Of a stretch of 64,000 nt of DNA, positions 18,597 to 42,819 are shown in pieces (positions within the stretch are counted from its first letter, which is position 1; the number at the start of each line of letters is the position of its first letter). The DNA lies in NCBI RefSeq assembly GCF_003334405.1, contig NZ_QOWM01000005.1. One strand, given 5' to 3'. The translations under genes were made by a program, and so were the position numbers. Origin of the DNA: Escherichia coli. GTDB lineage: Bacteria > Pseudomonadota > Gammaproteobacteria > Enterobacterales > Enterobacteriaceae. The notes below the pieces were generated by a model. That model saw nothing but the letters and a program-made list of their open reading frames with translations. It had not been told where the DNA came from and did no database searches.

Positions 18597-21957
<3,361 letters not shown>

Positions 21958-21966
21958 TGTGTTAAC

Positions 21967-21986
21967 GCCCGGCTTGCCGGGCTTTT
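21967..21986 (+). terminator. Stem-loop with T tract between fecA and fecB (putative attenuator)
   Basis: GCCCGGC-TTG-CCGGGC followed by TTTT, directly after the fecA stop. Confidence 0.4.
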
Positions 21987-22001
21987 AGCTGGAATGTGAT
22001 T

Positions 22002-25620: not shown

Positions 25621-26177
25621 ATTGCACAGGCCGTAAGAACCAAACCACGACTGAATGAAACTGGACTGGCGCCAGCAAGCCTGTTCAGACTGGGGCTGAA
25701 CTTTTCCGGACTCTGAAAGATTACCAATACTCATCGTCCATCCGCTTGCTTTAGGCTGACAGGTTCATAATCAACGCAAACCAGAGCTGTACAGGCTTGG
25801 GCGCGGCTTTCAAACCAGTCGTGATCACGGCAATCAATTTTGAACTCTGCTTAACGGACATTTCTGTATAACCCTTACGGCAACGAAAAACGCGAAGTTA
25901 AAATTTTAGAAACCCAAAAACGTGACATGACTAAGTTTAGATTTCAGGGGGGGAGATCAAAAAATTTCGCTCTGTGCCAGAGCGGACATTCACGGAGCTG
26001 GTTCATTACCAATGAGGTTGGGCTTTTGAGGATAAATCAATGATCAGACGCCAACGTAAATCAAAAGCAACCCTGGAACGGAATTGCTAATCCAGTTTCT
26101 GACCATCGATTTTTCTAAAAAGTGTGCGTTTGCTACTACTTAGGTAGGTGCAGCTTTCTTAATCACCGGCAGCCACG

Positions 26178-26519
26178 TTATACAGGCCAGTTGATGGATC
26201 GATTGTTATCAATGATATCTTCATGAGTCGGTGTCTCACCCAGCTTACCGAAGCTGGCATAAAGTGAAGGCAGACGGGCCCGTCCTTCTCCCTTTTTCGC
26301 CAGAGGGAAAGCGCGAAGCATGGTGGCAGCCTCCCAGTCACAACAATAGGATGGTGTGCACGGCTGCTGACGCCATGATTCAGCGATAGAGCCGGAAAAT
26401 ACGGGGTCAAAGCCGGTATCATTAACCAGAGTCATCGTGACCTGTACTGCGGCTGGATGATCTCCTGCTACTGCAACTGCTAGGCGACCGCGGCTCCCTT
26501 CAGGTAGTGAAGTGGTCAA
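26178..26519 (-). pseudogene. Possible C-terminal fragment of a dinucleotide-binding oxidoreductase-like gene
   Basis: 113-aa ORF isolated between the fec and dnd modules with no obvious N-terminal domain; assignment is a weak guess. Confidence 0.25.
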
Positions 26520-26837
26520 CTTAAACTGGCCACCGATTTAGAGTTTTTCCAGTAGCGGTGTTCCGATTCGTTTGGGGGCAACCCGCCGTTATTGTCATGC
26601 GGTCTTAGCGAGCTGTAATACCCGATGATATAGTCTGTGATCGCATGAGCAGCTTCGCTAAAGCTTATGCGTTAGCGCTCTACAGAAGTACAGAGCATGT
26701 CTGCACGGTTGCTCTGGGTTATAGAGCAAAATTGCGGGTATATTGAAAGGTGGTACGCAATTTATTACGTGAAAAAGCTGTAATTTCTAGCCAGTGTTAC
26801 GTAAAATATAACGTAACAAAATTCACCTTATGCTTTT

Positions 26838-27935
26838 ATGGATTACAGCATGGCTAGTGTTGATGCAGATTACTGCTACTCGTTTCCGGCTATACGTGGC
26901 ATTCAGGCTGGTCGCCCTTTCTATATCGCCACATGCCCGATGCGTATCATCCCGAAAATATTCAGTTTTGATGAAAATGATGTGCCACCGGAATTACGCG
27001 CACAGCGCACGCTAAATAAATCGCGCATTCCCGAGATGGTACGTTATTTGTTGGAAAACCCTAAAGATTATGTGTTTTCAGCTCTGACGGCTTCCATTGC
27101 CGTAGACGTTCAATTTGATGAGTTTCCAGGTTCTAACAATCTGGGGACGTTGTGCGTACCAATGGATGCGCAAATTCTAATCAATGATGGACAACATCGC
27201 CGTAAAGCGATTGAAGACGCTTTAGACGCTCGTCCGGAGCTGGGCCAGGATAATATCCCGGTGTTGTTCTTTGTCGATGAAGGCTTAAAGCGTAGCCAGC
27301 AGATGTTCGCCGATCTGAATAAATACGCCATTCGCCCCAGCCCATCGCTGGCGTCGCTATACGATCATCGCGATGCCTGTTCGAATCTGGCGCGTTATCT
27401 GGCAATGTCAGTAGAGCCGTTTGTTGGGATGACGGAACTGGAAAAATCTGGCATTAGCCAGAGGTCGAATAAGCTATTTACGTTGAGCAGCATCAAGCAG
27501 GCTACCCGCGCATTGTTGGGCAAAGATCCCAAAGAGGATAACTTTGAGGAATGCACCCACATTGCTACCCAATATTGGCAGGCTATTTTTAGTGTAATGC
27601 CTGATTGGCAATTAGCGGCTAAAAAGGAAGTTTCACCGGTTCAATTGCGACAAGATTATGTTCACGCTCATGGCATTGGATTGCAGGCACTTGGGCAACT
27701 AGGATATACCCTGCTGACGGATTATCCTGAGCAATGGCCGGAGAAAATCGCTGCACTCAAAACATTTAACTGGCGTAGAAACAATCCGGACCTCATCAAG
27801 CGAGCGATGCAGCATGGGAAGTTGAGTAAAACCAGTACCGCGATCCAGTTAACCTGCAATGCGCTAAAAACCGCACTCTCAATTCCCCTCACTCCTGAAG
27901 AACAGGAGCTTGAAGCTCAAATGGTTGTCTCATGA
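26838..27935 (+). CDS. dndB: DNA phosphorothioation regulator DndB (DGQHR domain)
   Basis: 365-aa ORF containing the DGQHR motif (INDGQHRRKAI); first gene of a dndBCDE-ordered cluster. Confidence 0.85.
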   Translation: MDYSMASVDADYCYSFPAIRGIQAGRPFYIATCPMRIIPKIFSFDENDVPPELRAQRTLNKSRIPEMVRYLLENPKDYVFSALTASIAVDVQFDEFPGSNNLGTLCVPMDAQILINDGQHRRKAIEDALDARPELGQDNIPVLFFVDEGLKRSQQMFADLNKYAIRPSPSLASLYDHRDACSNLARYLAMSVEPFVGMTELEKSGISQRSNKLFTLSSIKQATRALLGKDPKEDNFEECTHIATQYWQAIFSVMPDWQLAAKKEVSPVQLRQDYVHAHGIGLQALGQLGYTLLTDYPEQWPEKIAALKTFNWRRNNPDLIKRAMQHGKLSKTSTAIQLTCNALKTALSIPLTPEEQELEAQMVVS

Positions 27936-29554
27936 GTAAATTAGTTCAGGCCTATGATTTGGCCGAATACGAAGATTTTATTAATCAGGAACAGTTCGCC
28001 GGACGTCCTCTGGCCGAATATGTTGCTGAGGTTCAACGAATTTATTGTGCGGATAAACGTCCGTGGGTGATTGGCTACAGCGGTGGGAAAGATTCTTCCG
28101 CTGTGATCACGCTGGTGTATCTGGCCTTGCTCGGCCTGCCCCCGGAAATGCGCAGCAAAGATATTTTTGTGGTGTCGTCCGATACGCTGGTCGAAACACC
28201 GGTAGTCGTGGATCTGATTAAGAAAACGATGTTGCAGATTGAGGCGGGAGCGAAGCGTAACGGCTTGCCGATCACTCAACACGCGGTAACGCCTAAAACG
28301 AATGAAACCTTCTGGGTCAATTTGCTGGGGAAAGGTTATCCGGCTCCAACTCGTAGTTTCCGTTGGTGCACTGAGCGCATGAAAATCAACCCGGTGAGTG
28401 ACTTTATTAAAGATAAGGTCAGCCAGTTTGATGAAGTCATCGTCGTACTTGGTTCGCGCAGTAGTGAAAGTGCTTCTCGTGCGCAGGTGATCGCAAAGCA
28501 CAAGATTGATGGATCACGCCTTGCCCGGCATACCACGCTGGCAAATGCATTCATCTATACCCCCATTGATACCTGGGATGTAGAAGATGTCTGGAAGCTG
28601 CTGCGGGGCGCGTTCCGCTATGCCCCTGAAGATATCGACGAGTGGGAAAGCCCGTGGGGTGGAAACAACCGTCCACTGTGGACGTTGTATATGGATTCTT
28701 CCGCACAGGGTGAATGTCCTCTGGTAATTGATGATAGTACCCCTTCCTGCGGCAACTCGCGTTTTGGCTGTTGGACCTGTACCGTTGTCACTAAAGATAA
28801 GGCGATGGAAAGCCTGATCAAAAACGGTGAAGAATGGATGTCTCCGTTGCTGAAATATCGTGATCTGCTGGCATTTACCACCGATCCGGTGAATAAAGAC
28901 ACGTTTCGAAACTATAAGCGCCGTACTGGTAAGGTGAGCTATCAGTACGCTAAAGAAAGTGATGAGCCGGGGGCTGAGCGTAAGCATGTTCCAGGTCCTT
29001 ACTGGCTAAAATACCGTCAGCAATGGCTCAAAGAATTGCTGGAGATAGAGCGCGATTTGAATGCTCAAGGCCATACCATTACGTTAATTACCAAACCAGA
29101 GCTGCATGCGATTCGTCAGGAGTGGTTGAAAGATCCTAATGAACCAGACTGGTATGACACGCTGCCGGGTATTTACCGTGAAGTGTATCAACAGGATTTA
29201 GACTGGGTGGTGGACGATCAGTCGCGCTTTGATGCCAGCGATGCAGATCTGTTGGTGCAGATAGCGCAGGGATTTGACGTTGTGCCTGAAATGGTGATGA
29301 AACTCATCGAGCTGGAAGTTTCAATGGAAGGCTTAAGCCGTCGTCAGGGCATTTTTGACAAACTTGGCACGATTTTAAAGCAGGACTGGGGCACTCTCGA
29401 AGAAATTGAACAACAACAGGTCACTCTGCAAAAACGAGTTGAACGAGATATTCATCAGGAAGAACTTACAAAGCTGGAAACTGAACTTCAGGTTTTACAG
29501 CGCAGAATTGTTGATGCCAGTGAATCCTCGTTACTGATTGGGGAGGAGAAATAA
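27932..29554 (+). CDS. dndC: DNA phosphorothioation protein DndC (PAPS reductase-like PP-loop ATP pyrophosphatase)
   Basis: 540-aa ORF with PP-loop SGGKDS (IGYSGGKDSSAV) and conserved Cys cluster; overlaps the dndB stop. Confidence 0.85.
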   Translation: MSKLVQAYDLAEYEDFINQEQFAGRPLAEYVAEVQRIYCADKRPWVIGYSGGKDSSAVITLVYLALLGLPPEMRSKDIFVVSSDTLVETPVVVDLIKKTMLQIEAGAKRNGLPITQHAVTPKTNETFWVNLLGKGYPAPTRSFRWCTERMKINPVSDFIKDKVSQFDEVIVVLGSRSSESASRAQVIAKHKIDGSRLARHTTLANAFIYTPIDTWDVEDVWKLLRGAFRYAPEDIDEWESPWGGNNRPLWTLYMDSSAQGECPLVIDDSTPSCGNSRFGCWTCTVVTKDKAMESLIKNGEEWMSPLLKYRDLLAFTTDPVNKDTFRNYKRRTGKVSYQYAKESDEPGAERKHVPGPYWLKYRQQWLKELLEIERDLNAQGHTITLITKPELHAIRQEWLKDPNEPDWYDTLPGIYREVYQQDLDWVVDDQSRFDASDADLLVQIAQGFDVVPEMVMKLIELEVSMEGLSRRQGIFDKLGTILKQDWGTLEEIEQQQVTLQKRVERDIHQEELTKLETELQVLQRRIVDASESSLLIGEEK

Positions 29555-29555
29555 C

Positions 29556-31556
29556 GTGCTCATTAAACAGCTGGTATTACATAATTTTCGGGTATTTAAC
29601 GGTACACATACCATTGATCTGGCACCCAGAAAGCGTCCGCACGATTTGAATCCACGACCTATTGTGCTGTTTGGTGGTTTAAACGGCGCAGGGAAAACGT
29701 CTATCCTGTCGGCGATCCGCATAGCGTTGTATGGACGACTGGCGTTTGGGCTAGCGACTCAACAGCAAGAGTATATCGAACAACTCAGTGCATTGATTCA
29801 TAACGGCGCGTACTATATTGAGCAGCCGGAAGAAGCATCTGTAGAACTGACGTTTACCTATAATAAAGGCGGTCATGAGGCCGAATTTACCGTTACGCGA
29901 ACCTGGAAAAAGGGGAAGAGGGACCGCCTTTCTCTGCAACAGGATGGGCAGCCACTCAGTGAGCTGGATTACGATCAGTGCCAGGGATTTCTAAATGAGT
30001 TAATTCCGCATGGCATTGCTGATTTGTTCTTTTTCGATGGCGAGAAAATTGCAGAACTTGCTGAGGACGAATCCGGTAATATTTTACGTACTGCCGTACG
30101 ACGCTTATTGGGGCTGGATCTCATCTCTAAACTGCGTAACGATTTAATGATTTTTGTTAAGCGTCAGCAATCCAGCCAGCTAGCAAGTTCTCAGCAACAA
30201 CAGATTGCAGAGCTTGAAAAACAGAGTAAAGAATTAGCCTGCCAGACAGAAGCACTGCTGGAAAGCGCCGATTTTGCCAAATCGCGGATTGAGTTTCTAT
30301 CTAAAGATATAACCCATTATGAAGGCTTGCTAAATGCTCAGGGGGGCGCTTTTGCCCAGACTAAAGCGCAGGAAAAACAGAAAGTCGAAACGCTGCTAAA
30401 AGATAAAGAACATCTGGAAAAAGCACTGAGACAAGAATGCGATGGCTCGCTACCTTATGCGCTTGCGCCCACTATTTTGTCTCATTTGCTGCAACAAATT
30501 GCTGATGAAACGCAAATTAAACAGGCAAAAAGCTTTGAAAAAGAGCTGAGCCAGTTTTTAACGCAACTCAGAAATGATATTGCATTTCGTTCTGCGGGGA
30601 CTGGCAAAATAGCAGCTGAAGCGATTACCGATAATCTAAAAGATTATATGGCAACGAAACCAAAAGGTGATTTGCTCTTTGATATCTCTGAGCGTGAAGC
30701 AGGTATGCTTCAACAGTCTATTGAGATAGATAGTAAAAGAGCATGGCAGCGTTTCGAGCTTTATCGCACACAGTTATCTGAGATTGAACAACAGTTAGAA
30801 CAAGCGGCTGCTAATATTGCCCGCGCTCCTGAAGATGAGCAGCTGATGGATCTCTTTGAAAAATTACGTGACCTGGATAGGCAGCGCGAAGCCCAATTGC
30901 AGAAATATCGGTCATTGCTAGAAGATGCTAAACGTAAAAAACAGCAGCAACTGGATTGTGTTCGTCAGATTCAAAAAGCGCATGACGCCGCTCGTTATCA
31001 GCACAGTTATAGCAGTGCGTTTAAGAATGCTCAGGAAACGATAAATTTACTCGATCGCTACAGCGATGTATTAACCCAGGCTCGGGTAAAAACGCTGTCG
31101 ACAAACTTCGAGCTTGCTTACCGTAAGTTGGCTCGCAAAGAGGATTTACAACTTAGTGCGCATATCAACCCTCAAACGTTTGATGTTGAATTAATTGATG
31201 AGAATGGCTCAGTAATTAACCGTAAGTTACTTTCTGCTGGTGAAAAACAGATTTATGCAATTGCTATTCTTGAGGCGCTGGCGAAAACCTCTGGCCGTGA
31301 TTTACCAGTGATCATTGATACACCATTGGGTCGTCTGGACTCTCAACATCGAGATAAATTGATTAATCACTACTTCCCTGAAGCCAGTCATCAGGTTGTG
31401 TTGCTTTCTACCGATACTGAAGTAGATGAACGTTATTTTGTTGATCAGTTGCGTGATGATATCTCTCATGCTTATGAGATTGTGTTTAATGCACATACTA
31501 AGTCATCAACGCTGAAGCCTGGTTATTTCTGGGAATTAACTAAGGAGGCTATCTGA
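29556..31556 (+). CDS. dndD: DNA phosphorothioation SMC-like ATPase DndD
   Basis: Walker A GGLNGAGKTS, long central coiled-coil, C-terminal signature/Walker B region; likely start GTG 29556 after GGAGGAG, whereas the ORF track uses TTG 29538. Confidence 0.85.
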   Translation: MLIKQLVLHNFRVFNGTHTIDLAPRKRPHDLNPRPIVLFGGLNGAGKTSILSAIRIALYGRLAFGLATQQQEYIEQLSALIHNGAYYIEQPEEASVELTFTYNKGGHEAEFTVTRTWKKGKRDRLSLQQDGQPLSELDYDQCQGFLNELIPHGIADLFFFDGEKIAELAEDESGNILRTAVRRLLGLDLISKLRNDLMIFVKRQQSSQLASSQQQQIAELEKQSKELACQTEALLESADFAKSRIEFLSKDITHYEGLLNAQGGAFAQTKAQEKQKVETLLKDKEHLEKALRQECDGSLPYALAPTILSHLLQQIADETQIKQAKSFEKELSQFLTQLRNDIAFRSAGTGKIAAEAITDNLKDYMATKPKGDLLFDISEREAGMLQQSIEIDSKRAWQRFELYRTQLSEIEQQLEQAAANIARAPEDEQLMDLFEKLRDLDRQREAQLQKYRSLLEDAKRKKQQQLDCVRQIQKAHDAARYQHSYSSAFKNAQETINLLDRYSDVLTQARVKTLSTNFELAYRKLARKEDLQLSAHINPQTFDVELIDENGSVINRKLLSAGEKQIYAIAILEALAKTSGRDLPVIIDTPLGRLDSQHRDKLINHYFPEASHQVVLLSTDTEVDERYFVDQLRDDISHAYEIVFNAHTKSSTLKPGYFWELTKEAI

Positions 31557-31909
31557 TGCTCCCGAATCGAATGGCGCTTAGCCGTCAGACTGAAGATCAG
31601 CTTAAAAAGCTTAAAGGGTATACTGGGATTACACCCAATATTGCTGCCCGGCTAGCATTTTTCCGCTCGGTGGAGAGTGAGTTTCGCTATTCACCTGAAC
31701 GAGATAGTAAGAAGCTGGATGGTACGCTGGTGCTGGATAAAATTACGTGGCTGGGGGAGACACTACAAGCTACAGAATTGGTGCTGAAGATGCTTTATCC
31801 ACAATTAGAGCAAAAGGCGTTGATTAAGGCATGGGCTGCTCATGTTGAGGATGGGATTGCGGCATTGAGAAATCATAAAAGTTTAATTAGCTTATTAAAT
31901 GCTATATAA
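31556..31909 (+). CDS. dndE: DNA phosphorothioation protein DndE
   Basis: 117-aa ORF overlapping the dndD stop; size and position fit DndE. Confidence 0.8.
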   Translation: MLPNRMALSRQTEDQLKKLKGYTGITPNIAARLAFFRSVESEFRYSPERDSKKLDGTLVLDKITWLGETLQATELVLKMLYPQLEQKALIKAWAAHVEDGIAALRNHKSLISLLNAI

Positions 31910-31950
31910 AACATTTAAATTTATTGGTATGACCTTTTGTTTTCAACCTA

Positions 31951-31986
31951 AAACCACCTCCTAGGGAGGTGGTGATTGAGTTTTAT
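31951..31986. terminator. Bidirectional stem-loop terminator between convergent dndE and the ATPase gene
   Basis: Perfect palindrome CCACCTCC-CTAGG-GAGGTGG at 31954-31973 with an A-rich tract upstream and TTTT downstream. Confidence 0.5.
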
Positions 31987-31991
31987 AATTG

Positions 31992-33155
31992 TCATATTGC
32001 TAATTTTAAAATTAATTCACCGGCATCAGGCGAATGTATCAGCGTAGCTAAATGTGAACCACACTTGCAAGAATTGAAGTTGCTGTCCACTTTAAATTTA
32101 AAGCGTCCGTTAGCAACCTCAGCATATCGGTAATTTTCATTCTCACTTTTCTCTTTTAGTTCGATCCTGAATTCATTATTGATATTTTCTAAGCAATATA
32201 AGAATTTTTCTATCTCATATTCGTTAGTTTCAATCCAAAGAGCAATTGCAAAACCCTTTAAGGTAGATAAATGCTTATCCGATAAGATTTTAGACAGCTC
32301 AATGAAAAAATCATGATGATCACAAGTCATAGCATCGAACTCGCCCTCAAGATAATCGGCATCCACGCCTAATTTTGCAGCATAAGCCTGAATGTTATTT
32401 TTTATACACTCTATAACTTCTGCTTCTGGTGGTAAATTATTTTCTGAGGGTAGGAAAACATTTTTAATACAATCTGAATTTATTCCTCTGCTTTTAACTT
32501 GATCGGCATCGTAAACAGATACTATGTTCAGGCCAGAGCTATCTTTATAATGCTCAGATACTTTTTGTATATTAGATTCACCTTGTAGATTATGTAAGTA
32601 ACATGTAGAGTAAAGATGTGTGTTTTTTATTTTTAAGATATATTCAAGTACAAGTTTTGCAAAGTCATCCTCTATCAGGAAAATATTTTTCCTTTCAGGA
32701 GCTAAACCCAGTGCATTGAAATATCTATAATTATATCCACAATTTGATATGGTATATTTTTTGCCTTTTTTAGCTAAGACTAATACTGAGTTTAAGCCTT
32801 GAGGGCTGAGTATGTGTTCAGAGTGAGTAGCCATCAAAACATTTAATTTTTTAGTATCGATTGTGTAGGCTAAAAAATCCATGAAATTTTTCTGGCTTAC
32901 CGGGCAAATAAAACTCTCTGGCTCTTCAATGAAGAGGATTGAATTTTTTTCCGTATAAATAAGTTTCCAGATTGCTATAAGTAACTTATGTTCTCCTTGC
33001 CCCATACTCTCTGACGTATAAACTATATTACTGTTAACCTCTTTAACCTCAAAGTATGGGAAAGTTAAATCATCAATAATTCCTTCTACCTCATTAACTT
33101 TTACATACTCATATTTCTTGCCTGTGATTTTCTGAACAAAAAAAAAGATTTTCAT
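31992..33155 (-). CDS. ABC/OLD-like ATPase, C-terminal part (Walker B, H-loop and TOPRIM-like region); separated from its N-terminal part by a frameshift
   Basis: 387-aa ORF with LFIEEPESF (Walker B-like), MATHSEHIL, and a TOPRIM-like IFLIEDDF ... YDAD; begins with ATG directly abutting the T9 tract. Confidence 0.6.
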   Translation of the reverse strand: MKIFFFVQKITGKKYEYVKVNEVEGIIDDLTFPYFEVKEVNSNIVYTSESMGQGEHKLLIAIWKLIYTEKNSILFIEEPESFICPVSQKNFMDFLAYTIDTKKLNVLMATHSEHILSPQGLNSVLVLAKKGKKYTISNCGYNYRYFNALGLAPERKNIFLIEDDFAKLVLEYILKIKNTHLYSTCYLHNLQGESNIQKVSEHYKDSSGLNIVSVYDADQVKSRGINSDCIKNVFLPSENNLPPEAEVIECIKNNIQAYAAKLGVDADYLEGEFDAMTCDHHDFFIELSKILSDKHLSTLKGFAIALWIETNEYEIEKFLYCLENINNEFRIELKEKSENENYRYAEVANGRFKFKVDSNFNSCKCGSHLATLIHSPDAGELILKLAI

Positions 33156-33603
33156 TTAGCAAATGATAAGAATTTGATGTATTGAACCATCCATTTTTGT
33201 TTGGCGATGTGTTTATTTCGTTTATGATTTTTAATGCCATTGATGAAGCATCAAAATATTCAACATTTCTTAGTCCATCACCCAAAGACGAAGTGAAAGT
33301 TTGTTTCTCTCCATTAATTATTATATCAATGGAGATATTATCAATATCAGAAGAGCTAAAAATCCCAACATTACATATATCTTTCGACAGTATACCATAG
33401 ATAAGTTTCAATAACGACGTTTTACCAATGCCATTTCTTCCACATATAGAGGTTAAAGCTGAGTTTATCGTAATATCAGCATCTTCAAAGAGTGGTACAT
33501 TCTTAATGGATAAACTACATATTTTAATATTAAACTTTTTCCTGTTTGCCACATGATTCCAATAATCAGCTAATTTTGCCATTTTAATTGTTTCTATTGA
33601 CAT
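33109..33603 (-). CDS. ABC/OLD-like ATPase, N-terminal part (Walker A)
   Basis: 164-aa ORF with Walker A GRNGIGKTS; it reads through the T9 tract and terminates 12 codons later. Removing one T joins it in frame to the 387-aa ORF. Confidence 0.6.
   Translation of the reverse strand: MSIETIKMAKLADYWNHVANRKKFNIKICSLSIKNVPLFEDADITINSALTSICGRNGIGKTSLLKLIYGILSKDICNVGIFSSSDIDNISIDIIINGEKQTFTSSLGDGLRNVEYFDASSMALKIINEINTSPNKNGWFNTSNSYHLLNENLFFCSENHRQEI
33138..33146 (-). repeat. T9 homopolymer (A9 on the plus strand) at the junction of the two ATPase ORFs
   Basis: Nine consecutive A at 33138-33146 on the plus strand; on the coding strand ATC TTT TTT TTT GTT. Confidence 0.8.
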
Positions 33604-34799
33604 GTAGTTACCCCCGCTAAAACAGAATCTGCATAATTGTTGACGACGCTTATCAGATTCTTTTCATTTTCATGATAAAGTGCTCTATGCGCAGTTTTTA
33701 GATTATTTTTTTTCATCGTATTGAACACATCTGCTTTACTGGGGTCACTCTTCAAGAAAAATAGAGATATTATAAAGTCTCTGATGAGTAAGGAAGTACC
33801 AGTCATTACTCTTGATACAGCCCTAAAATTAAATTCTTCCAATAACTCCTTTACTTCATCTTTATTTTCACAATAAAACAATCCATCCAACACTCCCTCT
33901 TCTCTGAAAACGAATCTACCACTTTCAAAGCGGTAAAAGAAATCACTAAGGCTATCGTCTAAATTATAATTCGATTTTAAAATGGTTGAAAAAAAATAAA
34001 GCCATGAAGTTAAAGTGGCTTTTGTTATATGAACCTTACTTTCTTCACTATCAATCTTTTTCTTTGCCTTACTTAATATTAAAATGGATTTTTTTACTAG
34101 TTCTATGATTGAATTATCAAAAGGCTCATCTTCACGAGCCCTGTCGTTTAATTGCTTTTCTGTATAAGAAGCAATCAATGAATCCTTCTCAAGCATGTAG
34201 CAAAGTTTAATGAAAAGATCATGGTATGCCATCCTTTGATTACTAAAGCCTAGAAAGTGCTTGTCAAGCCCACAATCCGACATATAATCTACGAGAGATT
34301 TTATCTGGTTTCTTAAATCGCCAACATAAGCATTTCTCTTTTCTGCTGAAGTTAATTTAAGAGATTCATTCAATCTGTTGAATAGTTCACCGGGCTCTCC
34401 CTGATTGTATTCAACAATCTCAAATACTCGAATGGCATACCGTTCAAATCTGTTTTTTATTCTTTGAGGTAATTTATCAAAAGTTAATCCATCTAATTCT
34501 TTGATATCATCATCAATAGGTTCAATTAATCCATTTATTTTGAATTTATTATACATGAAATCTCTTATGGCACTTAATCGTTGCTGTCCATCGAGAACTT
34601 CTTGAATATAGGAATCTTCATTTAAAATAACATGGACAGGTGGAACCTGCCACCCTCTTAGAATAGTATCGATTAAAAGTTTTTTCTTCGGAAGTTGCCA
34701 GACTTCCGCCCTCTGGAAATCGGGTTGGAGATCTAGACTTCCTTCATGAATCCTAGAAAATATAGTCCTCAAATCTGGATCTGTAGTATTTATTTTCAT
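33594..34799 (-). CDS. DUF262-like (ParB/Srx-fold, DGQQR motif) protein
   Basis: 401-aa ORF with LQPDFQRAEVWQ ... VLDGQQRLSAI in the N-terminal 100 aa; its ATG overlaps the dptH stop (ATGA at 34796-34799). Confidence 0.65.
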   Translation of the reverse strand: MKINTTDPDLRTIFSRIHEGSLDLQPDFQRAEVWQLPKKKLLIDTILRGWQVPPVHVILNEDSYIQEVLDGQQRLSAIRDFMYNKFKINGLIEPIDDDIKELDGLTFDKLPQRIKNRFERYAIRVFEIVEYNQGEPGELFNRLNESLKLTSAEKRNAYVGDLRNQIKSLVDYMSDCGLDKHFLGFSNQRMAYHDLFIKLCYMLEKDSLIASYTEKQLNDRAREDEPFDNSIIELVKKSILILSKAKKKIDSEESKVHITKATLTSWLYFFSTILKSNYNLDDSLSDFFYRFESGRFVFREEGVLDGLFYCENKDEVKELLEEFNFRAVSRVMTGTSLLIRDFIISLFFLKSDPSKADVFNTMKKNNLKTAHRALYHENEKNLISVVNNYADSVLAGVTTCQ

Positions 34800-37700
34800 T
34801 TCATTAACTCCCAGAATGCTTTATCACGCATTTTCCTAACTTTTTTATTTCCATCTATATACAGGCTAAAATGCTTCTCAAGTTGTCGTATCTGGCCCAT
34901 TAAAGACTCCTGCTCACTTTTATCGTCAATGTTAAATACCGCCTTAATGTCCGAATTCCTAATCTCAGAAACTCGATGAATTACCCAAGTGAGAATATAA
35001 GAAGCATAATTATTCTCGCCTGTTTTAAAGTGAGTAATTTCTTGTGTTGATAGAATCGCCCCTACACCATATTCACGGCCTTCTTTAAGGATTTTACGCA
35101 AGCTGGCAAAATCCTGGCGCATAAAGTTATCGGCTTCATCAACCAGAATCATTTTGGTTAACTGGCGATAATCACCTCGCACCGTCGGTTTCCCACGCTT
35201 TTGCATCTGCGCATAAAAAAGATCCAGTGTCAGTGCAACTACCAGGTTTTGAATCTCTGATGGATAACCAGCGAGTTCGATAACTGTGACTCCATCAACC
35301 AGATCGTACAAACTGGTCATCTTCTCTGGATCCGTTTCAAAAATCTGGAAACCAGCCAGATTATAAAGTGCAGCATATAATGAATCTTCGTCGACCTTCT
35401 CTTGTGCCAGGTACTGCTGCCACACATCTTCAATAGTCGGTGCTACACGATTCCATGTTGATCGATCATGAGGCACTATTCCTGCTAAGTCATAGCACTC
35501 CATTATTAACGTAACCAGCTTCATGCGTTGTTTTACGCCAAGGTTATACGCTTTGCCCATCGTTTCAGCGAATGCCATGGCCGTATGCCTCGGTAACATG
35601 GGCATATCACCAAATAACGATAACGGATTGTAAGGTAACAACGATAGCTGATACCTCTTAGCTCCCGTAGCTTCAAGAAACGCATCATCCACATAGTCGG
35701 ATTTATAGTCGAAGATCAACAAGCCAATCGGTTTACCGTCAACGTTGTAGGACTGATTGCGCATCAGTTGCGTAACCAGCGATTTAGTAAACTGGGTTTT
35801 CCCGGTGCCCATTGTTCCAATAATGCCGGTATTAGTATTCATGAACTTAGCGGTGTTGGTTGGTTCCCAGTACAATGGATTCTGACGCACAGCATCATGA
35901 CCAAACAAGATCTGTAATGGTGTATTGCGGACATTACTGGGGGTTAGTGCCGATGCTTCAGGTTGTGGAAGCTCCAGCGCAGAAATGGGCGGCGGCTCAG
36001 TTGTTGTTGCTACCTGTACTGGGTGTGAAGAATTGACATCACACTCTGGTTTGAGCAGATATTTTTCCGGCACCCGATAGCGTTCAGCTAGTGGAGGTTG
36101 ATCACCTTGTGCTGCAATTAACGATGGAAGCAATGAATAGGGGATTTCGATCTGTAGAATATTCTCTGCCGTTTCTTTATAAGAGAGATCAAAACAGGTT
36201 CCGCTGTCTACATGAGCTACCACAAAGCCTTCTGCATAATCAGCAAGCTCACCTAACTGATAGTCGCCAGTGAGCCACCATTCACGTCGTTCCAGCAGAG
36301 GGGATAGCTTGTCGTTATCCAGTACACCATACAGACGCAACTTCTCTACCTGCATTAATACTTGGCGGATAAAAAGTGCCCGGTATAGTTGTGATGCTAG
36401 AGTTTTCGGCCCAAGAATATCTTGCTGTAAATAGCGTTTTAGCTCGCGGGCCTGCTGCCCCGCATGGTTGTAATCGGGGCGAGCTCCTGTTTTTACTTCA
36501 AGTGGTAACAGATACAGGTTGTTATCTTTGAAACCGACAAAGAGCACATCGTCAGAGATCGCTCCTTTCTGATAACCCTGTAAATGGCGCGATAAATCGC
36601 TTTCTTTCATTCTCAGCCCGACGTTGCCGGACACGCGGATCATCTCAGCTACTGACAGTGGAATCCAGCAAATATCTGACTGGAGCAGCATAGACTGTAC
36701 GAATTTGTATGCACCGATAATGCCGTGTTTTTCTTTGCGCTCCTTTTCATTTGAACGCAACATTTTTAACAGCCACTCACCGTTAAAGGCATTAAATTCA
36801 GCAAGTAGTTGCTGGCTATCAACGGTGGATTGTCCTGTTTGAAGGAGACGCAGGAACAACTCAACCTGTTTTGTGACAGTTACGGCGTCATAACCAGCAC
36901 AACTGGTGTACTGGTCAGAGTAATGAATTAGTACGACATCTTTTTGACTAGTAAAGAAATCGAGTGTGACCTTAGGGTCGATAATTGTGGTCCAGAGAGA
37001 GCTATCATAAGAGCGATTCAGCAGTTGCTTAAAGTTACCGCTCACAGCCAGACTAATTCCCTGACCGTGATACTGGCTGTTGCTCTGCCGTGCCGGTTGC
37101 CACAGACAGCCTAACAAGCGGGCGAGACGCAGGGCGCAAGACGATTCAGTATCGACATTACGCAGACCAAACGCGGTAAAGTAAGCATCGCCTTGTGTTT
37201 CAGCCCCTTCGCCTGCAATCAAGCCATGACATAAAACCCCGCTGGCAGCATCCTCAATGCGAATTTGGCGGCAATCAACCGGTGCGGTGTTGGTGAAAAA
37301 TGCGAGATGGGCGTAAGCCAGTTGATCGCTTTCCGGTGGCAGGATAAATTTGCTGAATGTTAAGCGACTGCGAAGCAGATCGATCAACATATCGGCTTCA
37401 GAACGCCACGCACCGCTGTTCAGACCAAGATCATTTTTAAGTTGTTCATAGCTGCCGCTTTCGGCAAAGCGGTCAAAGGCATTGGGTAGCAGACGTTCGT
37501 CATAGCAGTTTACGTGTATCGAAATTGCGTTATCTTTTTCCTGCTTAAAATAATCTACCAGTCCCAGGAATAGCTCTCTGGCTTCTCCCATATTAATAGC
37601 ATTAATAACCAGGGCATTATTTCCTGCACTCTGGAACAGCCGAGAATAGGCATCTGTAAATTCGTTTAGCTTGTCTTTCACCAGACGCTTAACATATTCG

Positions 37701-39880
37701 TGGCTCATCTGGCGCTGGGGAACAATATCTATCCAGAAGCGGTTTTCTACCATCGGTTGTAACTGTGCGTATTCATGTTCGCTATGATACACAAATGGCA
37801 TTAGGCCAGAGACGACCAGACGATCTAGAGTAATCTCTGGTAATGAAGCGAAGGAAGCTGATGTGGGGTATCCGGGCTCGGCGATAATAGTTTCAGCTAG
37901 CTGTAAATGATAAGCCATTACCAATGGGTGCAGAGGCGAGAGACGTTCATAATCGTCGCCGCGGCAAATCCCCAGATGTAACAGACGTTTTTCCTGGATG
38001 GTTAATGCTCTGCTTAGACTGATTTGCTGTAATGCCTGTTCAAAAGTAGCGATCATGTGACTGACTAATACACGATATTCTGCTGACCATGACACCAGAC
38101 TCGGCAGGGTATTTCGACGTTGATAGTAAACGAACAATTGGTGGTACGCATTATGGAGGTCGGGATAGCTCGCCAGAAGCTCATCCAGTGCAAACTCACT
38201 ACCATTACTGCCAGTGCTGAGCAGATTACGCTCGATCAGGGCGTACTCTTGCATAAGCAACTGCTGGCGAACACCAACCACATTATGTTCGATATTGTCC
38301 AGGATGACGCGACCTTTCAACTTGTTCCAGGTTGCATTCCCTTCTTCTTTAAAGAGTTTATTGAAACGACCCTGATCAAAAAGCAGAGGCAGTGTTAATC
38401 CTTCCTCTGCTCCTGGACCTTCGATGTTAAACAGTAAACGGGAGTCACCTGAAATCAAGGTAAATTTGATCAGCTCACTTTGATTCGCCAGCGTTTCAAA
38501 ATTAACGAGTGCATAATGGCGGCAATCAACATCATCACTTTCTTCATCAAGTAAACAGGTCTTGTCGCCGAACTCTGCAATACGTAACTCATTATCTTCC
38601 AGTTGCAGAGTTAATTGACCTTTACCAGGTTCAATACGATAACAATGCTGGATTTCATTAAGCCAGAATTGCCCTTGTTCAACTAACAGCAGGCGAAACT
38701 TGTACTCTTCTGCTGAGTTATTGCGGTTAATGATTTCGAGGCTAAAGAAGCAGGGCCGACCATCAAAAGGCACTGATGCCAGTATCTTAGAGTTTCTCCC
38801 CCCGAGCCGGCTAGTACGCCAGAATCGTTCTTTCTGTAACGGACGATGATGAGCAATTTTTACCTGATTGTCCTGAAGGTCGTTACCCTGGAAGATAAAC
38901 TCCAGCTCAACTTGTGACTGCCCCGGTAGAACCTGAACCAGGACACTGATATCTCGTTTACCTGCTTTACTGGTGCTTTTGGCTCTTTGCCAGACCTCAC
39001 CGTTTTCAGCAGTAATGTTTTCCAACACCAGTTTCTGTTCACTGTTTTGTGCTTTTTCATTCAGGTAGACGGAGAAATCAAGCTCACGCCAATCGTCATT
39101 GTCAACGAAATGCTCCTGAATGAATTTTGCACTAAATTCAGTTAGTACATTCTCCAGTTGCCCGCTGTAGCGTTCAACACTGTCCTCTATCTGGCGATAT
39201 AACTTTTGGTTTTCATTGAGCCGGGCGCGCAACTGCTTATCACTAAAATTCAGCAGGTTATTATCGTTGAATAACTTTAGCTCTGAGAAATCCAGATTGC
39301 CGTCGTCCAGCAGACGGTATAACGATGAAAATCCAAAAACCGTAGCGCCTTCATCCAATATTGTTGTCAACTGATCGCCCAGCAAACAGCGGGATACTTG
39401 AGAACGGGCGCTGTCCGTTGTGATTAACTTTTCGAGCTGGTGACGGAAGGTTTCTGGATGCCAGATAGCATCCGGTGCAGCGACATCTTTGGTACTATTG
39501 AGTAAGGTATCCAGCATGCTGTTGTGGATAATCAACAACGCTGTCTGGGCAAAAATGCCATTGCGGCCAGAAACCTGATCGCGTAAATGAGAAATATAGT
39601 TTTCTGTGAATGCAGGGGTAGTGGTGCCGTGCAGTACCGGAATAAGCTGGATATTATTACATTGGACGTAGGTAAGAAATTGCTCCGGTGCAATTTCTAG
39701 TTTATTTCCATTTGCTAAAGAGTCGAAAGCCTTCCAGAGCTTTAAGGCGTTATCCGGATCGGGAGATTTAAACTGGTAGCGCTCACCAGGCTGGATGATG
39801 CTGCTAACCCATTCAATGAAGGTTTCTGCCAGATAGGTTTCATACTGTTTTACGGACATATACGGCGTCTCCACTGTCAC
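34796..39880 (-). CDS. dptH: Phosphorothioation-dependent restriction protein DptH/DndH (large multidomain ATPase)
   Basis: 1694-aa ORF; C-terminal Walker A GTMGTGKTQ and Walker B ILVDEADNF; third gene of a DptF(549)-DptG(441)-DptH(~1700) array. The true start may be the internal ATG near 39859. Confidence 0.8.
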   Translation of the reverse strand: MTVETPYMSVKQYETYLAETFIEWVSSIIQPGERYQFKSPDPDNALKLWKAFDSLANGNKLEIAPEQFLTYVQCNNIQLIPVLHGTTTPAFTENYISHLRDQVSGRNGIFAQTALLIIHNSMLDTLLNSTKDVAAPDAIWHPETFRHQLEKLITTDSARSQVSRCLLGDQLTTILDEGATVFGFSSLYRLLDDGNLDFSELKLFNDNNLLNFSDKQLRARLNENQKLYRQIEDSVERYSGQLENVLTEFSAKFIQEHFVDNDDWRELDFSVYLNEKAQNSEQKLVLENITAENGEVWQRAKSTSKAGKRDISVLVQVLPGQSQVELEFIFQGNDLQDNQVKIAHHRPLQKERFWRTSRLGGRNSKILASVPFDGRPCFFSLEIINRNNSAEEYKFRLLLVEQGQFWLNEIQHCYRIEPGKGQLTLQLEDNELRIAEFGDKTCLLDEESDDVDCRHYALVNFETLANQSELIKFTLISGDSRLLFNIEGPGAEEGLTLPLLFDQGRFNKLFKEEGNATWNKLKGRVILDNIEHNVVGVRQQLLMQEYALIERNLLSTGSNGSEFALDELLASYPDLHNAYHQLFVYYQRRNTLPSLVSWSAEYRVLVSHMIATFEQALQQISLSRALTIQEKRLLHLGICRGDDYERLSPLHPLVMAYHLQLAETIIAEPGYPTSASFASLPEITLDRLVVSGLMPFVYHSEHEYAQLQPMVENRFWIDIVPQRQMSHEYVKRLVKDKLNEFTDAYSRLFQSAGNNALVINAINMGEARELFLGLVDYFKQEKDNAISIHVNCYDERLLPNAFDRFAESGSYEQLKNDLGLNSGAWRSEADMLIDLLRSRLTFSKFILPPESDQLAYAHLAFFTNTAPVDCRQIRIEDAASGVLCHGLIAGEGAETQGDAYFTAFGLRNVDTESSCALRLARLLGCLWQPARQSNSQYHGQGISLAVSGNFKQLLNRSYDSSLWTTIIDPKVTLDFFTSQKDVVLIHYSDQYTSCAGYDAVTVTKQVELFLRLLQTGQSTVDSQQLLAEFNAFNGEWLLKMLRSNEKERKEKHGIIGAYKFVQSMLLQSDICWIPLSVAEMIRVSGNVGLRMKESDLSRHLQGYQKGAISDDVLFVGFKDNNLYLLPLEVKTGARPDYNHAGQQARELKRYLQQDILGPKTLASQLYRALFIRQVLMQVEKLRLYGVLDNDKLSPLLERREWWLTGDYQLGELADYAEGFVVAHVDSGTCFDLSYKETAENILQIEIPYSLLPSLIAAQGDQPPLAERYRVPEKYLLKPECDVNSSHPVQVATTTEPPPISALELPQPEASALTPSNVRNTPLQILFGHDAVRQNPLYWEPTNTAKFMNTNTGIIGTMGTGKTQFTKSLVTQLMRNQSYNVDGKPIGLLIFDYKSDYVDDAFLEATGAKRYQLSLLPYNPLSLFGDMPMLPRHTAMAFAETMGKAYNLGVKQRMKLVTLIMECYDLAGIVPHDRSTWNRVAPTIEDVWQQYLAQEKVDEDSLYAALYNLAGFQIFETDPEKMTSLYDLVDGVTVIELAGYPSEIQNLVVALTLDLFYAQMQKRGKPTVRGDYRQLTKMILVDEADNFMRQDFASLRKILKEGREYGVGAILSTQEITHFKTGENNYASYILTWVIHRVSEIRNSDIKAVFNIDDKSEQESLMGQIRQLEKHFSLYIDGNKKVRKMRDKAFWELMK

Positions 39881-41165
39881 TCATTCTCTCCACATTTCCC
39901 ATGCGTTCATAAAACGCAACCAGCATTTGTGTAGACTGGTTATCCAGATAAAATCCGCGTTGCTCAAAACCACGTAGCAGCTCATGCAGACGGAGTTTTT
40001 TGTTTTTACCCACGGTAAGGTTAGTTAGTAGCAGTAGTCGATCCTGGTTCAGTACCAGCACTTTCCCCGCTCGGCCACGAACCTGAATGAAGTCAGTGCA
40101 AATCTGGCTTTCCAGCTCGTTGATGTATTTGCGATTTACCGCTGCTCGCTCGGTTTTCTTACCCTGAAACTGTTCAACGGCAACAGATAACAGCTGTTTA
40201 AAGGCATCTTCCAGGTTTGTAGCACGATCGCGTTCAGGAAGGTCTCGCTCCTCCTTACTAATGAACTTCTGTATATAATTATTGAGTTCATTTAGTACTC
40301 GATTCGATGTATCTGAATAACCTAAGCAATCTTGATATACCTGCCAAAGAGGGCGCTTTTCCTCACCTTTTACTTGTAATACCTCTAATGCAGAGAGTAC
40401 GGGGAATAATTTTTCACTTTGGCGGGCAAACCACTTATAGCCGAAGAGCTTTATTTTATCTCGTTCGGAGCTAGCTTTTTCAGTATCGAGGATAAAGAAC
40501 AATGATTTACTCTGCGGCTCGCCGTCTTGCCAGTTGTCCAGATTGAGCGCCAGTTGTGCGCACCAACTAAAGGCATACAAACGTAGAGTATTGGTCAGCT
40601 CCTGCAAAAGATATTGTGGGTGCTCTGCCAGAAACGCCAAATCAGACTGAAAACACGTTACCAGATAGGGTAAATAAGGTTGTTCTTTTGCAAATGGCCC
40701 CTCACCCAGTCGGATTAATTTTTTATTGAGCTTATTCAGCATCTCTTTTTCAATAAAATTCAACTTATCTTGTATCGGGTTATTAAGGCTAAAATCTCTC
40801 ATCAAATTGGCAAACAGTGTTCCAAGGCGTTTGTCGGCAGTCGAGCCTGCACTTATCTTTTCACCATCAAACTGAGCGTGGAACAGCAAGAACAGCGGGG
40901 AGACACGAAAAATATCCTGACTGGAAAAATACATCCGTTCCAGCACGGACAAGAACGCAGGTTCATCGATCAATATTTGCAGATGAGTTTTACAATCCTC
41001 GCGAAACTGCTCGAGACTGTATGTATCGATTTTATACTTCACGGCATAGCTCAGTACTAAACCTGTGACGATTTGCCAGTCAATATTGTTATTCTTATTA
41101 CGTATTGGAAGGTAGCTATCCAGCTGGTTATTACTAACTTTTAAATTTGTTGCAATGGGATACAT
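39840..41165 (-). CDS. dptG: Phosphorothioation-dependent restriction protein DptG/DndG
   Basis: 441-aa ORF between dptF and dptH with appropriate size and position. Confidence 0.7.
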   Translation of the reverse strand: MYPIATNLKVSNNQLDSYLPIRNKNNNIDWQIVTGLVLSYAVKYKIDTYSLEQFREDCKTHLQILIDEPAFLSVLERMYFSSQDIFRVSPLFLLFHAQFDGEKISAGSTADKRLGTLFANLMRDFSLNNPIQDKLNFIEKEMLNKLNKKLIRLGEGPFAKEQPYLPYLVTCFQSDLAFLAEHPQYLLQELTNTLRLYAFSWCAQLALNLDNWQDGEPQSKSLFFILDTEKASSERDKIKLFGYKWFARQSEKLFPVLSALEVLQVKGEEKRPLWQVYQDCLGYSDTSNRVLNELNNYIQKFISKEERDLPERDRATNLEDAFKQLLSVAVEQFQGKKTERAAVNRKYINELESQICTDFIQVRGRAGKVLVLNQDRLLLLTNLTVGKNKKLRLHELLRGFEQRGFYLDNQSTQMLVAFYERMGNVERMSDSGDAVYVRKTV

Positions 41166-41169
41166 GATG

Positions 41170-42819
41170 TTATCCCTCCATGCCGCTGATAGTAATCATG
41201 TCATCGTCCGCTCTTGCACTATAGACCCGCTTTAGGCCATCATAAAACTTGATTTCGCTGCTGGATTTTGCCTTTTCTGCGATTAGTTCAACGATTTCGT
41301 CCAGTAAGACAATCGCACTTTTATCATACTTATTAGGGCGATAGCCATTATTTAGTTTGCTCAATAGCTCAAATAAATTAAGACCGATCCGAATCGGATC
41401 TAGCGGATCTTGTCCTACTTTTAAATAGATATCGAAACAAGTTGTATGGGCTGTATTTTTCTTGAGAATTGAATCCCAGTCCGGTTTCAGCGCAACAGGT
41501 GCTGTGATTTTAATCCCACCAAATTCGCCTAAAAAGAACTCTTCTTTTTGGGTACTCAGTTCAGGTGCTTTACGGTTTGCGTAACGCTGAATACCAGCGA
41601 TAAGCTCGAAAGAGTAAAAGCGGTTTAGTGTTCTTTTTTGTTCCGGATCTGCGGTATAGTTTTTATGCAGATGCCAAATCTCTGAATAACGCTCAAAGAG
41701 CGCTTCTTTAAAGAATACAGAGAACCTTTTGTGATAGTTATTCCCTAAAGATTCATGTTGTAGTAGCCAGAAAAGTCTAATTAATGAAGCTGCGTCACCA
41801 GGCTTAACACATTGACGATCAAACGTAAGATGTAATTTCGCAAGTGTACTCAGAAAATCATCCAGTTCGGGATCAACTAATCCAAGCTCATAGCGCAAAA
41901 TAAATTGATCAATCTCGTATGTATGCAATCTGGCAGGATCAAAATCAGAAACCTTTTTAATTAGATCATTCTCTGCACCATTAAACAGATTATCAAACAG
42001 GTACCCAGGCCCTGTCAGCAGGTGGTGTAAAAAATCCAATAAGGTTCTTGTGGTAACAAATTGATCTTTTATTAATCGGGCTTTAAATAGCTGTGTTATT
42101 AAAACATTCTGAACACCGGGCATGCACAGTAGTTTAAAGTTAGCAACGGTTTTTAAATCATGTCCTATTGATTCATCACGTTGATAAATTGTGTAAAACA
42201 GGTTTTTGTCGTCATTCCCCGTTAATTGATTCATTAATTTTTTGATAAAAGGGGAGTATTCCCGCTCTTCGTCAAACTCGAACTTTGGATAATGTTCGAA
42301 ATCAAAAAATATACAATTTTCGTTGCGGTAAGGACGCTGGCCTTCCTGTTGCGCTGACAAGAATGAGTCAATAGCAGCACGGATAGCCATATGGGACTCA
42401 GAACCTTCTCTGGCAAAATTGGCTAGCATCCCGGTGTTGATACCGATGAGGAGCGGGTATGATTGCGAATGATGATTTTCAAATAAATCATTCAGTGCAT
42501 CGATAGCCGATTGTTGAGGCGCAAAGCTATGTGTCGCATCCAGATGGAAACTAAACTTCTGTTGATATTGTGGATCTGACTTACAGCGGGTTAAAATTTC
42601 GGATTTCCCGTCTCCACTACTTCCGCATAGAAAAATGATCTCACCGGGAGTAGCTGTATCCAGATAACGCTGTAACTCTTCTTCAATCTCTTGTTTAACA
42701 AAGAGTTGTTCTTTTAGCTCATCGAACACATCCTTTTGCCGATGAGTTTCTGTGGTTACGGAAAACGAAGATGACTTCGCAAGTACACCTAACGCTTTAC
42801 GTAATGTGATCGCGCTCAT
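41170..42819 (-). CDS. dptF: Phosphorothioation-dependent restriction protein DptF/DndF (P-loop ATPase)
   Basis: 549-aa ORF with N-terminal Walker A CGSSGDGKSE; first gene of the minus-strand array facing the integrase. Confidence 0.75.
   Translation of the reverse strand: MSAITLRKALGVLAKSSSFSVTTETHRQKDVFDELKEQLFVKQEIEEELQRYLDTATPGEIIFLCGSSGDGKSEILTRCKSDPQYQQKFSFHLDATHSFAPQQSAIDALNDLFENHHSQSYPLLIGINTGMLANFAREGSESHMAIRAAIDSFLSAQQEGQRPYRNENCIFFDFEHYPKFEFDEEREYSPFIKKLMNQLTGNDDKNLFYTIYQRDESIGHDLKTVANFKLLCMPGVQNVLITQLFKARLIKDQFVTTRTLLDFLHHLLTGPGYLFDNLFNGAENDLIKKVSDFDPARLHTYEIDQFILRYELGLVDPELDDFLSTLAKLHLTFDRQCVKPGDAASLIRLFWLLQHESLGNNYHKRFSVFFKEALFERYSEIWHLHKNYTADPEQKRTLNRFYSFELIAGIQRYANRKAPELSTQKEEFFLGEFGGIKITAPVALKPDWDSILKKNTAHTTCFDIYLKVGQDPLDPIRIGLNLFELLSKLNNGYRPNKYDKSAIVLLDEIVELIAEKAKSSSEIKFYDGLKRVYSARADDDMITISGMEG

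Follow-up and report, generated by a model that had tools for sequence, protein, structure and literature searches.

We analysed a 64,000-nt stretch of Escherichia coli DNA (assembly GCF_003334405.1, contig NZ_QOWM01000005.1), hereafter the window, to which all coordinates refer. Two adjacent minus-strand genes, which we call A and B, form an obligate pair, and one clade of this pair is linked to the DNA phosphorothioate (PT) modification genes dndBCDE. Gene A (33594..34799) encodes a 401-aa protein with a ParB/DUF262 domain resembling a nucleoside triphosphatase (NTPase) and an all-helical C-terminal half. Gene B (31992..33603) encodes an ABC ATPase followed by a TOPRIM nuclease, a helical domain and a small C-terminal beta-domain. 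The reading that we favour, at about an even chance, is that A-B is a split functional analogue of DndI/SspE, a two-protein defence module that depends on PT modification by DndBCDE.

The evidence for a connection with PT modification came from the genomic context of the relatives. We looked up 14 gammaproteobacterial loci at the top of one hit list, whose A proteins were 43-91% identical to that of the window; all 14 carried the pair within 4 kb of dndBCDE, and six of them had no dptFGH within 10 kb. The dnd-linked loci were checked by tblastn, apart from Serratia L100, for which gene calls were used. The order dptFGH-A-B, convergent with dndEDCB, was present in GCA_002354155 (91%), Yersinia similis, Pectobacterium, Aeromonas, Vibrio parahaemolyticus and Vibrio vulnificus, and also in Shewanella violacea, where an SBD-HNH gene is inserted directly upstream of A. 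The six loci in which A-B and dndBCDE occur and dptFGH is absent within 10 kb were three on Salmonella integrative and conjugative elements (ICEs), together with those of Pseudomonas sp. 8209, Pseudomonas sp. 1079 and Serratia fonticola; the absence of dptFGH was confirmed by tblastn for two of the Salmonella ICE loci and for Pseudomonas 8209. The three Salmonella loci hold two different A proteins, and the A protein of the third locus is 49% identical to that of the window. The arrangement of A-B relative to dnd varied: the two blocks were convergent or co-directional (the latter in Pseudomonas 8209 and 1079), sometimes with a transposase or PIN gene between them. Neighbour-joining trees of A and B were congruent, and the dnd-linked sequences formed one clade in both. 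The first-pass annotation of this DNA had attached the pair to a PT restriction operon through dptH. The coupling to dptH is present in the window, but the conserved linkage is that of one clade to dndBCDE, not to dptFGH.

In Salmonella enterica (L090, L091 and L095), the block of A-B and dndBCDE was found within an ICE, with TraU, TraG_N and TraC upstream and an ArdC-like gene and TraI downstream. Because the block sits inside an ICE, a PT module with A-B as its sole neighbouring nuclease candidate is mobile. In Serratia fonticola (L100:8295-14048), genes for a 162-aa protein and for a second, 402-aa DndB-like protein precede A-B in the same orientation; a PIN-domain gene lies between A-B and dndEDCB, and a gene for an OLD-like DUF2813 ATPase lies farther upstream.

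A-B is a widespread family that includes stand-alone modules beyond dnd islands. About 2000 homologues of A were detectable, with lengths tightly clustered near 400 aa. A scan of genome contigs returned at least about 20 true family members, all of them distant; the close relatives came from the individual look-ups. Fifteen distant loci had an intact A and enough downstream DNA, and in each of them a B homologue with ATPase and TOPRIM regions followed A directly. Two loci were left aside, namely L016 (a truncated A fragment, no B) and L019 (a collapsed single open reading frame). The distant A proteins were 38-46% identical, the two genes usually overlapped by 4 nt, and the hosts, from Proteobacteria, Bacillota and Bacteroidota, included Marinobacter, Psychrobacillus, Paenibacillus, Bradyrhizobium, Caballeronia and Lachnospiraceae. 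These pairs shared a PADLOC profile of NsnA plus HEC-04/ATPase-Toprim, with the NsnA model scoring 1e-30 to 1e-42 for the relatives. A DUF262 gene also stood upstream of B in the 12 dnd-linked loci in which both genes were complete and, by gene calls, in Serratia L100. The related loci had no conserved third gene. The ratio of non-synonymous to synonymous substitution rates (dN/dS) between E. coli B7A and the closest relative was 0.04 for A and 0.08 for B, a range that matches the dpt and dnd genes and indicates purifying selection on A as well as B.

The first-pass annotation had described A as a DUF262-type protein on the strength of its DGQQR motif, and this description held. Pfam PF03235 (GmrSD_N/DUF262) matched residues 11-159 at 5e-20. 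The DGQQR motif (residues 70-74; 34578..34592, minus strand), the predicted nucleoside triphosphate (NTP)-binding centre of DUF262, was invariant in 25 homologues, as were QRxxxW and FxxxN. The AlphaFold model of A (predicted local distance difference test score, pLDDT, 89.6) consisted of an alpha/beta N-terminal domain (about residues 1-160) and an all-helical C-terminal half (161-400). No HNH or DUF1524 domain was matched by Pfam, residues 161-400 contained no beta-beta-alpha element in the model, and the 25-homologue alignment had no conserved H..N..H. The best PADLOC model was Menshen NsnA (3e-33, a remote match), followed by PD-T4-2_A (5.5e-18); no NCBIfam family matched. The top fold matches of the model were BrxU, the nearest solved structure, and SspE, and ParB folds were also found. 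Searches of PDB chains with the A sequence alone and with a profile of 25 sequences gave no match below E 0.5, the best being BrxU at 0.52; A therefore has no residue-level mapping onto DndI or SspE. Two other proteins, DndB and the DGQHR protein found between dptH and dndE in E. coli EcPNK004, were compared with the A profile by hhalign and rejected, as only DGQxR was aligned, at about 1% probability.

Protein B had been called an OLD-like ATPase/TOPRIM protein, a call with which the motifs, the structure model and the fold matches agreed. The Walker A motif GRNGIGKT (residues 55-62; 33418..33441; this and the following motifs are on the minus strand) has G55, N57, G58, G60 and K61 invariant in 21 homologues. 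In the Walker B-type EEPE (residues 226-229 of the repaired protein; 32916..32927), E227, P228 and E229 were invariant, and E226, like D431, was conserved in at least 90%. MGxGE, the H-loop and H430 were also invariant in the alignment. The AlphaFold2 model (pLDDT 89.2) contained a beta-alpha-beta unit at residues 306-383. On this model, the invariant E311 and D312 (32667..32672), within LIEDD, lie right after strand beta-1 (306-310), and the invariant DxD (D365-A-D367; 32502..32510), within YDAD, lies right after strand beta-3 (359-364). Such a placement of the Glu after the first strand and the DxD after the third is the TOPRIM signature (PMC12065111). Both OLD-type features, the N-terminal ABC ATPase and the TOPRIM Glu/DxD, are thus present in B.

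In B, Pfam found only ABC-type ATPase families (AAA_15, AAA_21 and AAA_23), NCBIfam gave only sub-threshold ATPase matches, and none of the 21 B proteins matched the Pfam TOPRIM/OLD, DUF4435 or DUF3696 families at threshold. Since no Pfam TOPRIM family matched, the TOPRIM call rests on the motifs, the PADLOC models and the structure model. PADLOC HEC-04 matched at 2e-27 (94 bits) over the C-terminal two thirds of B, comprising the second half of the ATPase and the TOPRIM region. ATPase-Toprim_I-B, whose model also extends over the TOPRIM region, followed at 2e-15, and GajA, NsnB, PtuA and AriA at about 1e-14, with the NsnB model (2.8e-14) covering only the ATPase core. When a profile of B was searched against the PDB, the best match was the Thermus scotoductus OLD protein 6p74 (5e-18); a Foldseek search with the B model also gave 6p74 as the best match (2e-11), together with Gabija GajA and retron PtuA.

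Behind the TOPRIM region, the model of B has a helical domain (residues 392-473) and a C-terminal beta-domain (residues 478-536; 31995..32171) that comprises five strands and a single short helix. The beta-domain was restricted to dnd-linked loci, as a hidden Markov model (HMM) of the extension matched only dnd-linked B proteins. These were 527-581 aa long, versus 473-487 aa for 9 of 10 unlinked B proteins (alignment A2), where unlinked means a lack of dnd and dpt genes within 10 kb and implies nothing about the rest of the genome. The exception was a Marinobacter protein (L002) of 552 aa with an unrelated cold-shock domain. Searched against six-frame translations of all loci, the extension HMM matched B proteins only, and no source of the domain was found. 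The Marinobacter confluentis B protein (L002:11200-12855, not dnd-linked) ends in its cold-shock CSD domain (Pfam 4e-6) at the same place as the beta-domain of the dnd-linked proteins. This suggests that add-on domains for nucleic-acid binding can be exchanged at the C-terminus of B.

In the window, A and B follow dptF (41170-42819), dptG (39840-41165) and dptH (34796-39880) on the minus strand, convergent with dndBCDE (26838-31909, plus strand). As the first-pass annotation had stated, the dptH stop codon and the A start codon share an ATGA (4 nt, 34796..34799), and A and B overlap by 10 nt (33594..33603, with the B start at 33603). A GGAG sequence lies 8 nt upstream of the A start codon. The ATGA overlap recurred in GCA_002354155 (L082), Yersinia and Pectobacterium, and in Aeromonas A starts 20 nt within dptH; in Vibrio and Shewanella, A lies 140-220 nt from dptH or another gene stands between. 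A and B overlapped by 1-20 nt in the majority of related loci, from different phyla. B stops at 31992 and dndE ends at 31909; the intervening 82 nt contain a GC-rich 9-bp hairpin (31953..31973) between the two stop codons, with a T-run behind it on the minus strand only. The 96-nt intergenic segment that includes the hairpin (31905-32000) folded at -24.5 kcal/mol (z -3.84). The hairpin is likely the terminator of the A-B transcript, and possibly terminates in both directions. Because of the overlapping codons and the single terminator, we infer that dptFGH-A-B is transcribed as one five-gene unit in the window. A scan for sigma-70-like promoters gave 18 sites versus 28 in shuffled sequence and was uninformative on an internal promoter.

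The window region is 99.9% identical to that of E. coli B7A, where the genes adjoin tRNA-Leu and RefSeq labels A a 'DUF262 domain-containing protein' and B an 'ATP-dependent nuclease'. Among 5426 complete E. coli genomes, 207 carried dndC and 13, B7A included, carried the module at no less than 99.8% identity. A tblastn search of A against 72,556 plasmids gave no match at E 1e-20. The first-pass annotation had suggested looking for the pair beside dptH in the dnd islands of B7A and of Salmonella Cerro 87. B7A carries it; Salmonella enterica Cerro 87 has DndI, not A-B, in the same slot (PMC11662687, PMC4198939).

DndI provides a precedent for a PT-dependent reading. It combines DUF262 with a DUF1524 HNH nuclease, is co-transcribed with dndFGH, senses PT via its DUF262 half, has a PT-stimulated ATPase and is toxic without PT (PMC11662687, PMC4198939). 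DndI defends with IscS-DndBCDE alone, and 61 genomes were counted with dndBCD and dndI but no dndFGH (PMC11662687; PMC4198939), which parallels the A-B loci without dptFGH. SspE likewise uses DUF262 for PT sensing (PMC9646914). Like A, DndI (PDB 9JFL) and SspE have an N-terminal DUF262 domain with DGQQR, and DndI shares with A-B the slot after dndH, convergent with dndE. However, each of them is one protein with a fused DUF1524 HNH nuclease, whereas A has no HNH and the nuclease candidate is the separate protein B; outside the motifs, no sequence similarity to A was detected. A has the N-terminal DUF262 features of the GmrSD/SspE/DndI family (QR, DGQQR and FxxxN), but we rejected membership because it lacks the C-terminal DUF1524 nuclease, which is also fused in GmrSD and BrxU.

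Other defence systems resemble one half of the pair or the other. Menshen NsnA, the best PADLOC model for A, has the same combination of ParB-DUF262 and a helical C-domain (ParBDB), and its gene is likewise followed by one for an OLD-type ABC ATPase; the published model of a sensor, an ATPase and an effector in Menshen is analogous to A-B, with A in the role of the sensor (PMC12065111). Unlike B with its fused TOPRIM, however, NsnB ends in a DUF3696 tail without a nuclease, and the NsnB model fitted B no better than those of GajA, PtuA and AriA. Menshen also has a third gene, NsnC (an inactive PIN plus an effector), with no counterpart after B. Menshen identity was rejected because NsnC and the DUF3696 tail are absent. 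HEC-04/IbfA, the best PADLOC match to B, has the same domain order, Walker A and E/DxD metal site. It is a validated anti-phage protein and depends on both Walker A and the metal site of its TOPRIM domain (bioRxiv 10.1101/2024.01.29.577857). It acts alone, whereas B always followed A in the loci examined; the match is remote, and dnd-linked B has an added C-terminal beta-domain. As B was never solitary in these loci, the pair is probably not HEC-04. The OLD family shares with B the ABC ATPase and TOPRIM with the catalytic E and DxD, but its classes differ in the partner, which is absent in Class 1, a UvrD-like helicase in Class 2 (Gabija), a retron in Class 3 and AriB (DUF4435) in Class 4 (PARIS); with a DUF262 protein as the partner of B, classes 1-4 were rejected. 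PD-T4-2 was rejected as well, because the partner there is of the HEPN type (PMC10952713). The literature searched contained no description of the A-B pair, and it is not among the nucleases given in the Aravind-lab survey of Dnd-associated nucleases (PMC10853773). By its domain content, A-B appears to fit no named system and to be hybrid-like in its features. The first-pass annotation had reached the same view, with which the remote PADLOC matches and the absence of the parts that define Menshen, GmrSD, SspE and DndI agree.

We favour PT dependence because of the linkage to dndBCDE, the persistence of this linkage without dptFGH, the clade-specific domain of B and the precedent of DndI; this reading of self/non-self discrimination is confined to the dnd-linked clade. 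We infer a defence function in which A, as a ParB/DUF262 NTPase whose helical, ParBDB-like half serves for DNA binding, would bind DNA and read its PT status, and would control B through NTP binding or hydrolysis. B, as an OLD-type ABC ATPase-TOPRIM nuclease, would then nick or cut DNA without host PT marks. The two proteins would be translated as a coupled pair, and in the window island transcription would probably run through dptFGH-A-B from the dptF promoter. Somewhat more tentatively, we propose that DndBCDE and A-B make up a complete, unrecognised PT-based restriction system without DptFGH, in which a stand-alone DUF262 sensor gates a separate OLD-type nuclease.

Several observations weigh against PT dependence. 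The 14 linked loci are phylogenetically related and are not independent samples, and the clade was defined on neighbour-joining trees with midpoint rooting. All 15 distant A-B pairs lacked dnd and dpt genes within 10 kb, and for this reason the family as such is independent of PT. A is remote from DndI and SspE by sequence, DndI was absent among its fold matches, and the PT-sensing residues could not be mapped. HEC-04, the best match to B, works alone. Finally, other E. coli islands have unrelated cargo in the slot, and simple embedding could explain the co-location.

The slot itself was compared in the window (31910-34795) and in loci L097, L098, L099, L092 and L100. M505 and EcPNK004 have a small protein and a DGQHR (DndB-like) protein there, and GCM39 has a 273-aa 'restriction endonuclease' whose gene overlaps the dptH stop codon; many of the occupants are ParB-superfamily proteins. 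At the dpt-dnd position, '1 to 3 hypothetical proteins' had been noted by Ho et al. (2015) in dnd-positive E. coli only (PMC4373003). The gap between dptH and dndE looks like a variable cargo slot of dnd islands. The composition of A-B sets it apart as well: its GC content is 0.31-0.34 (32% for the pair) versus about 0.45 for dptH and 0.44-0.49 for dnd, which bears out the AT-richness noted by eye in the first-pass annotation. In nearly all related loci, A-B was 10-22 points lower in GC than its dpt/dnd flanks and the rest of the locus (3 points in L003), and this held across backgrounds of 29% to 55% GC. In Pectobacterium, A and B were 75% and 59.5% identical, versus 88% for DptH and 94% for DndC, so A-B diverges faster.

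A rival reading is that A-B is an autonomous, PT-independent two-gene relative of Menshen and HEC-04 that is carried as embedded cargo, with A sensing a phage protein or some feature of phage DNA and activating B. The low GC fits a mobile cassette, and the faster divergence from the flanks and the varied cargo of the slot in other E. coli islands point the same way. So do the distant pairs, which are solitary or lie beside other restriction genes; in a Lachnospiraceae metagenome-assembled genome (L011:701-6525), a type I HsdR gene is followed after 70 nt by a distant A-B pair in the same orientation, which is another pair embedded in a restriction system. HEC-04/IbfA moreover defends as a single gene and was discovered embedded in another restriction system (bioRxiv 10.1101/2024.01.29.577857; PMC12111858). 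However, hitch-hiking fails to predict that a clade spanning 43-91% identity stays beside dndBCDE across hosts, integration sites, orientations, ICEs and dptFGH-free loci, and the clade-specific gain of a domain in B is not predicted either. We regard autonomy, the main rival to PT dependence, as possible, though rather unlikely.

It is improbable that A-B is a type IV-like module, in which foreign DNA with modifications such as hypermodified cytosines, or PT in a foreign motif, would be recognised by A, and B guided to it. Such a module would add to the restriction of unmodified DNA that PT already provides. Among solved structures, A is nearest to BrxU, a type IV enzyme of the GmrSD family that complements BREX in a comparable way (PMC10952713), and dnd loci often contain nucleases that read PT or other modifications, such as the SBD-HNH protein of Shewanella violacea (PMC10853773). 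Yet the structural match is to a generic DUF262 fold with no sign of a modified-base pocket, and the linkage to dnd specifically would be left unexplained. Least probable of all is that A-B serves DptFGH as extra subunits or a back-up nuclease that works only in complex with it: translational coupling to dptH in the window, L082, Yersinia, Pectobacterium and Aeromonas is compatible with such a role, as is the published B7A 'dndBCDE-FGH' clone, which must have held A-B (PMC10470545), but six related loci have A-B and dndBCDE without dptFGH, in Vibrio and Shewanella 140-220 nt or one gene lie between dptH and A, and the DndFGH of B7A, as far as it is described by citation in PMC10470545 and PMC11662687, works as a 2:2:1 complex without extra subunits.

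Gene B is not intact as assembled in the window, where it is split into two minus-strand open reading frames (33109-33603 and 31992-33155) by a T9 homopolymer (33138..33146, minus strand) that breaks the frame (+1). Deletion of one T from this run restored a 536-aa protein identical to B7A WP_000021429.1. B7A has eight Ts in this run (T8, in frame) and strain EC416 has seven (T7); EC416 has an additional 1-nt deletion in a T8 run within A. In 12 of the 13 E. coli genomes, the matched record spanned 3000 nt versus 3001 nt in the query, which is consistent with T8; the run length was read directly only in B7A and EC416. A-B contains five A/T runs of at least 7 nt within 2.8 kb (33138-33146, 33989-33996, 33706-33713, 34089-34095 and 32944-32950), and dptH and dndBCDE contain none. 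The homopolymer differences reflect either a sequencing-error hotspot or real slippage that may act as a contingency-type on/off switch; for the window strain, either the module is inactive or the assembly has a homopolymer error.

Around the module, an integrase gene (43029-44297, minus strand) lies beyond dptF, and on the other side the island adjoins the fecABCDE ferric-citrate operon (19633-25620). An IS3 transposase remnant (about 26100-26600, following the B7A annotation) lies between fecE and dndB. The fec block has 56-62% GC, a composition clearly unlike that of the dnd, dpt and A-B blocks. These differences mark the island as a mosaic.

Work on DndFGH uses E. coli B7A as its reference strain. 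The B7A 'dndBCDE-FGH' plasmid pWHU4387 was built from fragments of 8,286 bp and 8,321 bp, about 16.6 kb together, and A and B go unmentioned in the paper describing it (PMC10470545). The distance from the dndB start to the dptF start in the window is about 16.0 kb (26838-42819), and pWHU4387 must contain A and B because this interval includes both. The contribution of A-B should be separated from that of DndFGH. If DndBCDE and A-B do form a complete restriction system, part of the anti-phage activity credited to 'DndFGH' in B7A-derived clones stems from A-B.

DndFGH, DndI, PbeABCD, SspE and SspFGH are already known as effectors of PT-based defence. If our favoured reading is true, a DUF262 sensor split from an OLD-type nuclease would be a further PT-effector architecture. 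A complete system of DndBCDE and A-B would, moreover, be the first to connect the sensing of PT with effectors of the OLD/Gabija/PARIS class. A-B would join two themes of defence, modification sensing by DUF262 and nuclease control by ABC ATPases, and it offers a test of how DUF262 signals to a separate effector, which is an open question for Menshen. The dptH-dndE gap could be mined for further PT-associated effectors.

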